Positions 45,569-50,202 of a stretch of 64,000 nucleotides of DNA are shown in pieces. The stretch's first letter is position 1. Each line of letters starts with the position of its first letter. A model generated the notes under the pieces. That model was given only the letters and a program-made list of their open reading frames with translations, searched no databases and had not been told where the DNA came from. The DNA lies in IMG/VR virus record IMGVR_UViG_3300048597_000624, positions 1-64,000 of that record; one strand, written 5' to 3'. A program made the translations under genes and the position numbers. This DNA comes from a virus.

Positions 45569-45748
45569 TTAGGATGTTTTGCGGTTCTTCCGCTTCACTG
45601 TGCTCGCGTTGACCTTGGCTGCCTGCGCCTTGGAAGCCTTGGACTTGCGGCGGTACGTCTCTTTCTCGCTGGGCTTGGTCATTACCGCATCGCCCATGAA
45701 GCCTGGTCCACGGATCGGCGTATCGAAGATCTCAGGTAGATCGGCCAT
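45569..45748 (-). CDS. 59-aa basic protein missing from ORF track
   Basis: MADLPEIFDTPIRGPGFMGDAVMTKPSEKETYRRKSKASKAQAAKVNASTVKRKNRKTS; TGATG coupling to portal stop. Confidence 0.6.
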   Translation of the reverse strand: MADLPEIFDTPIRGPGFMGDAVMTKPSEKETYRRKSKASKAQAAKVNASTVKRKNRKTS

Positions 45749-48700: not shown

Positions 48701-50202
48701 CCGGCGCCCTGCGAGAACGTGGGGTTCTGTAGCGCCTCTTCGCCGTCGGTCGGGATCGACGAACCAATCATGCCCGCGACTTCAGCCGGCTTGAGCTTCA
48801 ACCCCATCTCCCAAGCCATCTGGTACGCCTGGAGCTTCTTCTCCACCTCGGGCGATTCGGTGTCGATTACGAATCGCACATAGACCCGCTGCGAGCCGGG
48901 GAAGTTGAACAGCTTGAGCGGCTCGACAAAGTCCGTCGTTAGCGACTCTTCGAGGTTCGTCGCGTCATAGCGAATTATTTGATTAAACGTTTCGAGGTGC
49001 AGATCCGCCACGCCACTGCCCAGGCCGGTCGCTTCGGACTCACTCGACAGGATTTGGCCCAGGATGTATCGCTTGATCTGGTGGCCAAACAGGTCATGCA
49101 CGATCGACTTGAGCGACTCGACGCCGGCCGCGTTGGGCTCGATGCGATCGATTCCGTACTGCGATTTCTCTTCGCCCTCGGGGATCGGCACCAGAATGTT
49201 ATTGTTCTGGTGGGACTCCATTGCCGCCGCTTCGGCCTTTTCTTTCCCCTCGGGGTTCCCCAGCGGGTAGTACCAGATTGTGAAGCCTTGTCCCACGCGC
49301 TCGAGATATTCGACCAGCATCGCGAGGGCTTCTTGTTTCTGATACCACGCCCAGTAGATGCGCGAGCGCACGCCGACGCCATGAATCGCACCGGCGTCAA
49401 TTGGCGATTCGTAGGCCGCGTCTTCAACCATGTGCTTGTGCAGCACGATCGCGCGACGTTCCCAATCCTCCAGGAAATACCCCATGCCCTGATCGGTCGC
49501 GACCACCTTGTGCGGTCCGACCAGGTCGCCGGGCTTGAAGTTTCCCGCCACGCGGATGCCGATTTGGTCTGGATCCCAGCCCTCTTCGTTCACTCCGGGG
49601 ATATCTTGGCGAAAGAGCAGCTTGTCGCCGTTGATCGGGCGCCACTTGCGAACGATCAGCCGTTGCTGGCCGTGGACGTAGTCCCAGTTGAACAGGTTGT
49701 TGATCGCGGATCGTCCGAACCAAACCGCTTCCTGCAGCGAGCGGCGATACTCCACGAACCGCGAGGTCCGGCGAATGATCGCGGTGAGGTCGTCGACGAG
49801 CTTCTTTTGCAGCGGGGAATTCTCGTCTTCCGCCTCGAGGTGCCAATTGAGCAGCGCCACGCAACGCTGGCGAGCCTCCAGGCACTCCATCACCGTGCAA
49901 TCGTTGCGCATGTACCGCGCGTTGTCTTTCGAGTGGCGGTAGGCTTCGTCCGGATTGCGGTAGACCTTGGCGAGGTTGGAAATCAAACCCTGGAACGTCA
50001 TCACGTGCGGCATCACCGGCATGCCGAAGCCGGGAGGGGCTCCCTTGATGCCGCGCGCAGGATCGTGCGACTTCACGTTGGGCGGGCTGGCCTGGCCGTT
50101 TGCGTGGCCATTGGTGGACGGCTTGGGCGGGCGCGGCGTGCGGGCAACCAGCGGGCGGGCGTTGTCGGGCAGGTTGCCGCGAGAGGGGAGGGGAGCGGCC
50201 AT
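45748..50202 (-). CDS. Portal protein (Mu gp29/DUF935-like) fused to Nudix, MutS-I-like and zincin-like domains
   Basis: ILGQILSS...GLGSGVADLH portal motif; GHRRDGEDPRKAAAREVEEETGL Nudix box; HPRDDEGKF; HELAH...SKYA...EGWAE. Confidence 0.85.
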   Translation of the reverse strand: MAAPLPSRGNLPDNARPLVARTPRPPKPSTNGHANGQASPPNVKSHDPARGIKGAPPGFGMPVMPHVMTFQGLISNLAKVYRNPDEAYRHSKDNARYMRNDCTVMECLEARQRCVALLNWHLEAEDENSPLQKKLVDDLTAIIRRTSRFVEYRRSLQEAVWFGRSAINNLFNWDYVHGQQRLIVRKWRPINGDKLLFRQDIPGVNEEGWDPDQIGIRVAGNFKPGDLVGPHKVVATDQGMGYFLEDWERRAIVLHKHMVEDAAYESPIDAGAIHGVGVRSRIYWAWYQKQEALAMLVEYLERVGQGFTIWYYPLGNPEGKEKAEAAAMESHQNNNILVPIPEGEEKSQYGIDRIEPNAAGVESLKSIVHDLFGHQIKRYILGQILSSESEATGLGSGVADLHLETFNQIIRYDATNLEESLTTDFVEPLKLFNFPGSQRVYVRFVIDTESPEVEKKLQAYQMAWEMGLKLKPAEVAGMIGSSIPTDGEEALQNPTFSQGAGMGLGLPGMPGQQPGQPGQPGDNLPGSRSTVAFPQNPLAGGDDDEGPGEDGPEVDDDPDDDPDKPDDDGPEGDKQKAAAADGGLQLRMYGPAGGATPRQYAKRDDAESIIVEDDDPDIVATAIIHDGKVLLVRRSEASTRTGEWECPAGHRRDGEDPRKAAAREVEEETGLSIEFLPGEVPFETRNGKSGVMYRAQVAAGSSSNVDTNPKEHDYHWWLSLDSLAKLDDATTPPDLRQQIEKLAEDLPEKLKHRRNKEGRRVYRAEPDPEPKGAQWKTVGGAPALVGEDGHIHAGCPGLEGEDVDDLRDESDESRARRARKQDAHEDHRDSVLREAHDRALEMAPAGTILLVNENGDYHAFGAGAARLNEHLELGNGKHAVIKQADLEGHLNTLVNRGHRVGIVDAPGHATPHREDDDHEGYPDAWDDIDMVGDEEPTPQEQPETGEQMESPVETEIDAPTQPDPAKADAARRARAELEQSKEAIRRAWRQAGQNPPDELLPKQEASVRELESAAGLPPGGEPKSQPQSQQQPAKQPKPKRTSEGRLGQAISALAEEHNLDAATLRDAVDFVWEEKRQAITDREHAKMQLREIMGLTRNDFARLSNAGKDYTAIPGFDVKATSVAASLPELGLGNHAEGYSEDLGERVWDMLGEGRIEPPARWSNEVLSEAVDLAHQAGKYVPARDDAIESVPFARTRRFLRKYARQTRLFDDDPQANSGTQKGLDFESKHPRDDEGKFVEKESAGSGSSSSESSSTPAAAAKESTADDSAESELHAARESVRAKLLKDMPEQLKRLSKDKQQAYRAAISRAIDGMNGECLRRVDRFVSSVQWKPSVSGVTAEARRRGSRIPRGATVMGFFAYPIYRSTGKPTHEDLNGTLCLDGGEDTGERVGTADPGSDITAAGTHAHELAHAIGGHDFDYTPEWKKNWQEEINLPSTPLSKYAKTDAQEGWAEFGRLLFLDREKAEANYPKCFQYWRDKGLV

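Follow-up and report, generated by a model that had tools for sequence, protein, structure and literature searches.

The locus described here raises the question of whether a phage portal protein can itself carry a set of enzymes into the head. The stretch analysed (the window) comprises 64,000 nucleotides, positions 1 to 64,000 of IMG/VR record IMGVR_UViG_3300048597_000624, and forms the first 64 kb of this 85-kb provirus record. On its minus strand lies a single unbroken open reading frame (ORF) of 1484 codons (45748-50202), running from ATG to TGA, which a preliminary description made from the letters alone had read as a portal protein with accessory domains in one frame. Our analysis confirms the single frame, which has no stop in 4455 nt, and shows that its domains follow from the N- to the C-terminus in the order portal, linker, Nudix hydrolase, small beta module, MutS-I-like segment, linker, helical domain, HPRDDEGKF peptide (the HPR tag) and zincin-type metallopeptidase. 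The domain list first given was right, with the MutS-I part lying below the curated cut-off, and all feature coordinates were correct to within a few bases (Table 1). We lean towards reading the product as a phage-type polyvalent protein that uses a Mu-type portal as its anchor and carries head-packaged cargo. It combines at least two unrelated effector-type domains (Nudix, zincin and MutS-I-like) with two unnamed modules, and it is fused to a virion protein, the portal, within the packaging module.

The portal assignment is based on several profiles. The Pfam family PF06074 (Portal_Mu/DUF935) matches residues 95-476 with an E-value of 2.7e-40 and 139.1 bits against a cut-off of 23.9, covering positions 4-331 of the 336 in the profile, and phrog_113 likewise matches the portal domain. 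Our own portal hidden Markov model (HMM) spans residues 27-501 and finds its only match in the 85 kb at this place; in scans with HMMs, no other ORF of the record shows a portal, the tag or one of the three unnamed modules. The ORF thus contains a full-length Mu-type portal, the element's only one. Homology with its relatives begins near residue 20-46, and the first ~45 residues form a Pro-rich leader common only to this protein and its closest relative, P0002. The acidic linker first described after the portal is likewise there (linker 1 in Table 1). When compared with 50,697 cultured-phage records, the whole protein gave no match, while the portal domain alone matched four, the best with 31% identity over 40% of the domain.

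A protein of this length could result from separate genes that a frameshift, an overlooked stop codon or a chimeric assembly had merged, and its three long low-complexity linkers are spots prone to assembly slips. The properties of the frame argue otherwise. The GC content at third codon positions is high in frame throughout (0.69-0.86, with 0.36-0.57 at second positions, across all 100-codon blocks), and since both values are steady in every block, the same frame looks coding from one end of the ORF to the other. A GGTGA stands eight bases 5' of the start. Furthermore, P0002, a protein of 1750 residues found on 40 contigs and 88-93% identical in the shared parts, has both halves in one chain and shares the portal-Nudix junction, eight IMG/VR loci hold a Mu-type portal together with this zincin in a single frame uninterrupted by stops, and 280 long Mu-type portals were found. 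The assembly error that the preliminary description named among the findings that would refute its reading is therefore unlikely, and we regard a merger of any of these kinds as extremely improbable.

The first enzyme behind the portal is a Nudix hydrolase. PF00293 matches residues 619-728 (E 3.1e-17, 63.3 bits against a cut-off of 21.1), and the Nudix box at residues 649-671 (48190-48258) agrees with GX5EX7REUXEEXGU at every fixed position, so that its description as perfect was justified. On the other hand, the more specific role proposed for it, that of a nucleotide-signal or ADP-ribose hydrolase, goes beyond what the matches show. Matches to Nudix structures in the PDB reach an E-value of 3.8e-9 with neighbours that mix RNA pyrophosphohydrolase, ADP-ribose pyrophosphatase and MutT types, and all Nudix matches among the NCBIfam equivalogs lie far under their cut-offs; because the best matches are generic and of mixed types, the substrate class is not assignable. 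The nearest cultured-phage matches of the domain are Bcep1 gp18 and Sonali gp3, at 33-41% identity, and phrog_15528, which is labelled 'portal', aligns with the Nudix part.

The opposite end of the protein carries a second enzyme. In anthrax lethal factor, the HExxH motif is followed by a catalytic Tyr and by a Glu ligand. The corresponding residues here (H1409, E1410, H1413, Y1444 and E1451) align with the lethal-factor positions, so that all the motifs behind the first description of a zincin-like domain (HELAH, SKYA and EGWAE) are present. Three residues do not vary in an alignment of 32 family members, namely the first His and the Glu of HExxH and the second Glu in EGWAE, and the second His, Y190 (Y1444 here) and E197 (E1451) are kept in at least 90%. 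The profile of these 32 members matches the catalytic domain of lethal factor in the PDB over ~125 residues (E 6.5e-10) and the Pro-Pro endopeptidases weakly (~0.1); ATLF and the Pro-Pro endopeptidases belong to peptidase family M34.

The family is large, with 654 cluster representatives at an E-value of 1e-3 or better, and 17 of the 32 aligned members match Pfam ATLF (PF07737). Taken by itself, the present zincin reaches 15.2 bits with PF07737, under the cut-off of 27.4, and finds no Pfam family at an E-value of 0.01. As these 17 relatives match and its own sequence stays under the cut-off, we file it as ATLF-related and not as a member. It has no match in the cultured-phage records and no PHROG family at an E-value of 0.1, and neither the zincin nor the beta module nor the helical domain matches any Pfam LPD or MPTase model. 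In IMG/VR we found 37 loci with 39 zincin ORFs, eight of them the Mu-type portal fusions mentioned above. At two IMG/VR loci (L008, 1135-8908, and L009, 919-7798) a portal-polyvalent ORF ending in a zincin is followed by an ORF of 803 residues with two zincins, each behind an HPR tag. The zincin search also returned P0125, a protein of 2604 residues in which a 30-residue zincin stretch, taking in the start of HExxH and the residues ahead of it, is matched 29 times at even spacing with a period of 89 residues; it looks like a giant tandem-repeat protein.

Between the two enzymes lie three further modules. The small beta-hairpin module is modelled by AlphaFold2 (AF2) with a predicted local distance difference test score (pLDDT) of ~80-88, and has no Pfam family and, at an E-value of 0.1, no PHROG family.

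The following segment was first described as MutS-I-like; it lies where it was placed, yet its family match is sub-threshold. PF01624 gives 16.6 bits at 47482-47670, below the curated cut-off of 20.6, and this is its sole match site in the 85 kb. Aligned by hhalign to a profile of 14 genuine MutS-I sequences, the segment scores 27.2 with a probability of 42%, a score that none of 200 shuffles reaches (shuffle maximum 19.6). In the ESM Atlas its neighbours, at a score of 0.88, are small clusters of viral MutS_I, a finding that we take as a lead only. The AF2 model of residues 765-930 has a mean pLDDT of 64, with 38-64 in the MutS-I-like part, and fold searches with this poor-quality model found nothing closer than an E-value of 1.6 in Foldseek and a Z of 4.1 in VIA; MutS is not listed among the phmmer matches of the piece in the PDB. 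MutS recognises mismatches through a Phe-x-Glu motif, and in the hhalign alignment these positions read Asp-Tyr-His, so that the motif is not kept. No stand-alone relatives were found among proteins of 55-177 residues. Judged from sequence, the segment is probably a divergent MutS-I-like domain, though by the curated criterion not a member.

The helical region first noted in the same frame corresponds to an all-helical domain, which AF2 models confidently (mean pLDDT 83). Its fold resembles no solved structure that stands out: the best Foldseek match to the PDB has an E-value of 0.25, and the best Z in a wide VIA-align search is 6.2 (root-mean-square deviation 2.0, 55 residues aligned), within the noise of helical models. 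The domain has no Pfam match, no PHROG family at an E-value of 0.1, no usable match in the ESM Atlas and no close relatives in IMG/VR; a search for stand-alone relatives of 103-331 residues returned one fragment of 115 residues. Its one match in BFVD, an uncultured-phage protein of 1030 residues, bears the name 2'-5' RNA ligase superfamily and may be of the same type. Neither the helical domain nor the beta module was found in print, in Pfam or in the PHROGs, in a search that left outside the supplements of Iyer et al. (2017) with their 40 LPD domains and 12 peptidase clades.

Table 1 Features of the portal ORF and of the neighbouring head genes, with positions in the window.
Feature	Residues	Position	Strand	Basis or remark
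Whole ORF, portal-anchored polyvalent protein (putative)	1484 in all	45748-50202	-	
Mu-type portal domain	~46-500	48703-50067	-	Pfam PF06074, own portal HMM
Linker 1, Gly/Asp/Pro-rich	501-610	48373-48702	-	composition: G21, D19, P16
Basic-Tyr junction RQYAKR		48394-48411	-	end of linker 1, before Nudix
Nudix hydrolase domain	611-745	47968-48372	-	PF00293
Basic-Tyr junction RRVYRAE		47908-47928	-	border of Nudix and beta module
Small beta-hairpin module 'WxT', then long helix	766-825	47728-47907	-	AF2, HMM
Probable divergent MutS-I-like domain	843-915	47458-47676	-	PF01624 sub-threshold, hhalign
Linker 2, Pro/Glu/Ala/Gln-rich	916-1039	47086-47457	-	composition
All-helical domain 'mid3'	1040-1180	46663-47085	-	AF2, HMM
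Junction and tag	1190-1238	46489-46635	-	PFAR...LRKYARQ (46585-46605), then GLDFESK-HPRDDEGKF
HPRDDEGKF tag		46489-46515	-	
Linker 3, Ser-rich	1239-1262	46417-46488	-	composition
Helical lead-in and ATLF/lethal-factor-like zincin	1296-1484 (zincin HMM)	45751-46416	-	family profile
HELAH (HExxH)		45964-45978	-	
SKYAKT (Tyr)		45862-45879	-	
EGWAEFGR (Glu ligand)		45829-45852	-	
Terminase large subunit		54706-56196	-	phrog_5653, phrog_2
ORF of 469 residues at protease/scaffold position, no family		43859-45268	-	position; conserved beside portal in L003
Scaffold		43320-43739	-	phrog_673
Major head protein		42116-43165	-	phrog_1005, E 1.4e-5

We then compared the protein with its relatives, the 280 long Mu-type portals found in a search limited to proteins of 816-2597 residues. 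Domains were counted by hand among the 119 listed of these; together with the present protein, these are the 120 long portals referred to below. The 119 relatives include InPase in 38, ART-PolyVal in 8, topoisomerase IB in 6, 2H phosphoesterase in 4, and Nudix and ParB in 2 each. The Pfam names were verified for the re-scanned families. In the four relatives re-scanned (three with InPase, one with 2H) this domain directly follows the portal, in the slot held here by the Nudix domain, which suggests, at the level of sequence, that a phosphoester or pyrophosphate hydrolase would be the preferred activity in the first slot. The HMMs detect the tag in 81 of the 120, the helical domain in 59, the beta module in 45 and the zincin in 15. 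In 38 proteins the beta module directly precedes the helical domain, and in 28 the tag is the next feature after the latter. Another hit of this search, P0080, is a Mu-type portal of 1510 residues with a ParB-like annotation. One source assigns it to the dinoflagellate Durusdinium trenchii; the sequence probably stems from bacterial or prophage DNA within that organism's assembly.

P0002 allows the most direct comparison. It shares the portal-Nudix part and the block of beta module, MutS-I-like segment and helical domain, and differs by two insertions or replacements: after the Nudix domain, just before an RRxYRAEPD junction, it has a tag-led cassette of ~430 residues, and after its last tag it has a short unrelated C-terminus in place of the zincin. 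The C-termini, which the preliminary description proposed to compare, differ in this pair. As the differences are whole cassettes bounded by junctions, modules are exchanged at these borders.

The gene stands among head genes, with the terminase upstream and, downstream, the ORF of 469 residues, the scaffold, the major head protein and a head-tail adaptor. Between terminase and portal lies an ORF of 406 residues (52204-53424, minus strand) whose sole match is to a KTSC domain (PF13619, E 6.4e-10). The gene order is Mu-like, and the tail of the portal stands where Mu has gp30/MuF. The absence of a recognisable separate MuF gene was borne out: PF04233 and PF06152 gave no candidate in six frames of the 85-kb record, while positive controls were detected, in a scan that did not cover MuF3 and MuF4 (Jamet et al. 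2017). A MuF domain hidden in the tail was also considered and is rejected at the sensitivity of hhalign, since each tail module reaches a probability of at most 1.8% against an alignment of 16 MuF sequences, compared with 88-99% for Mu gp30, Bcep1 gp17 and the Bm1 head-morphogenesis protein.

These observations bear on a structural explanation of the tail, in which the beta module, the MutS-I-like segment and the helical domain would replace MuF, serve packaging and hold or pilot the end of the DNA at the portal, the enzymes being accessory. It would account for the lack of PF04233 and PF06152 in the record and for a tail in the gene position of MuF; the recurrent order of beta module and helical domain, a pair that is the most conserved part of the tail, fits it as well, and so does the DNA binding suggested by the MutS-I-like piece. 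However, none of the modules resembles MuF in the profile comparison, 61 of the 120 long portals do without the helical domain, and MuF is present in one or two copies as opposed to twelve tethered ones. In addition, the portal L003 from a Pirellulales metagenome-assembled genome (G001) has neither a tail nor, in that genome, any MuF match. Altogether, we consider a purely structural tail unlikely.

We therefore return to the portal as carrier. That it brings cargo into the head, as first proposed, is the best-supported reading, given the head-gene context, the polyvalent domains of relatives in the same place and the C-terminal loss of the Mu portal. In this model twelve copies would assemble at the portal vertex, and their C-terminal tails of ~1000 residues would point into the prohead, by analogy with general portal structures and the Mu precedent. 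Each tail would be a string of modules split by low-complexity linkers and short basic-Tyr junctions, and these modules might be cut apart at or near the junctions, either by a head protease, as the C-terminus of Mu gp29 is, or by the protein's own zincin. Freed modules would stay in the head until infection and then exit together with the DNA. Once inside the new host, the Nudix domain could hydrolyse a nucleoside-diphosphate-X compound, for which an RNA cap, an immune signal, and ADP-ribose or NAD derivatives are candidates, the MutS-I-like piece might bind DNA, and the zincin might complete the processing or attack host proteins. From the twelve tails inside the prohead onward, we infer these steps from portal architecture, the processing of Mu gp29 and the arguments of Iyer et al.

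Several points weigh against this model. The tail is accessory and dispensable for portal function, since the L003 portal, 50% identical, consists of 612 residues with no extension. The helical domain and the beta module, its most conserved parts, bear no enzymatic signature and could be structural, and the HMM counts are biased towards the proteins from which the HMMs were built (alignments A1-A3). No head protease of this phage is recognised, because the ORF of 469 residues has no match in Pfam, PHROG, NCBIfam or the PDB, nor to Mu I or the Bcep1 protease; nor can the zincin be a general cutter, as 105 of the 120 long portals have none. Finally, experimental evidence for any portal-fused cargo was not found in the accessible parts of the literature cited here. 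The ORF of 469 residues has a homologue after the portal in L003 (2836-4530) and itself holds several basic-Tyr motifs; as a candidate head protease it was set aside, lacking family or sequence support, its role being guessed from position.

The function of the zincin can be seen in two ways. As an injected effector, it would cut host proteins as lethal factor does and take no part in processing the polyprotein. Its nearest solved relatives are indeed toxin or secreted proteases, both in the strong match to lethal factor and in the weak one to the Pro-Pro endopeptidases, and an effector that attacks the host is one option listed by Iyer et al. (2017, PMC5512222; this and the other papers cited by PMC number are referred to in their accessible parts). 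The same authors argue mainly for the zincin as a processing enzyme. Moreover, the zincin is far rarer than junction and tag but always has a tag ahead of it, and no host target can be named. By analogy, the zincin may be at least as likely a processing protease as an effector, and we find it improbable that it acts exclusively on the host.

The borders of the modules are marked by recurrent short motifs. Basic-Tyr junctions occur at three of them, ahead of the Nudix domain, ahead of the beta module and behind the helical domain. The HPRDDEGKF peptide pointed out in the preliminary description is present after the last of these and belongs to a wider pattern, HPRxxxGxF, which occurs 115 times in the tag-bearing portals among the 120, whereas 50 shuffles gave 0.86 on average and never more than 3. 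It usually has [WF]xExx directly ahead of it and a basic-Tyr dipeptide 7-20 residues further upstream; 74 of the 115 tags have [RK]Y within 45 residues upstream, as opposed to 17% of random windows. In all 15 zincin-bearing portals the tag is the feature immediately preceding the zincin, and several stand-alone zincin proteins likewise have this motif upstream of the zincin domain, in some cases near the N-terminus. Neither tag nor junction was found in Pfam, in the PHROGs or in the literature, in a search that left subscription journals and supplements outside.

A tentative and rather doubtful extension of these observations is that the junction and [WF]xExxHPRxxxGxF form a general cut-and-retain code for capsid cargo, the junction being the site of proteolysis and the tag the element that docks the freed module. 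The cutter would be the head protease or the lethal-factor-like zincin; the freed module would start with the tag and dock either within the head or at its exit channel; and stand-alone proteins, which have the tag in front of their zincin, would be loaded by it in trans. The junction resembles the sites preferred by lethal factor, in which an aromatic residue comes after basic ones close to the scissile bond. If the code is true, head-delivered proteins would become readable from sequence in thousands of uncultured phages, and new cassettes would be visible as they enter by recombination at junctions, as between this protein and P0002.

Fusions of this type have been described before. Iyer, Burroughs, Anand, de Souza and Aravind (2017, PMC5512222) report portal fusions with PBECR, 2H and InPase, for example the portal-InPase protein BcepF1.124. 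They describe the zincin-like metallopeptidase as a hub of polyvalent proteins, place MutS-I among the DNA-binding domains, where it occurs in Bacteroidetes and Firmicutes and mostly with ArdC-N, and predict that such domains are packaged and injected. The present protein resembles these in its portal, several unrelated effector domains, zincin, probable MutS-I-like segment and head-gene context. It differs in that the Nudix domain occupies the slot of InPase and that ArdC-N is absent, and the junction and tag are not mentioned in the accessible part of that paper, the supplements lying outside the comparison. Iyer et al. (2022, PMC9503650) describe NudE-like Nudix domains fused to MuF, portal and head protease, and suggest packaging and injection. 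The idea of portal-borne enzyme cargo is thus already in print, as regards both portal fusions (PMC5512222) and a Nudix domain fused to the portal (PMC9503650), and the reading given in the preliminary description is not new.

The nearest individual cases differ in their details. Mu gp29 belongs to the same Pfam family and has a similar head-gene order, and its C-terminus is removed in head assembly, the last 124 residues being absent from the virion structure and their loss attributed to protease I (PMC11915804). This tail, unlike the present one, holds no domain and no tag, and Mu has both MuF (gp30) and a recognisable protease I. In Burkholderia phage Bcep1, gp18 (698 residues) has a portal annotation that notes similarity to Nudix, and its Nudix domain is C-terminal to the portal in the head module, as here, but the protein ends after the Nudix domain and is followed by a separate MuF-type gene, whereas the present protein continues for 740 more residues and has no MuF. 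Gp3 of Arthrobacter phage Sonali has a Nudix domain in a portal-MuF fusion. The portal domains of these portal-Nudix fusions are only distantly related to the one described here.

Comparable carriers exist outside the portal. Polymorphic toxins fused to MuF are reportedly also the subject of Zhang et al. (2012). In these toxins a head protein beside the portal carries variable C-terminal enzymes in polymorphic cassettes (Jamet et al. 2017, PMC5576092). Here the carrier is the portal itself, in twelve copies as inferred from portal structures and not in one or two, and MuF1 and MuF2 domains are absent, MuF3 and MuF4 not being covered. Anthrax lethal factor and the Pro-Pro endopeptidases share with our zincin the HExxH and, placed downstream with matching order and spacing, the Tyr and Glu; no other domain of lethal factor is present, and this zincin occurs in phage head proteins behind an HPR tag.

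The protein is therefore an unusually complete additional case of a published class, that of the portal-polyvalent proteins, and overturns nothing. The class is known only from comparative genomics, and this member offers a clean test case for it, with intact catalytic motifs, no MuF and a near-identical relative that differs by whole cassettes. It suits the questions of whether the tail is packaged, where it is cleaved and what role the recurrent HPR tag plays. Cargo anchored to the portal would arrive with the DNA, twelve copies to a particle and ahead of all phage gene expression, which would be the right moment to blunt nucleotide-signalling defences.

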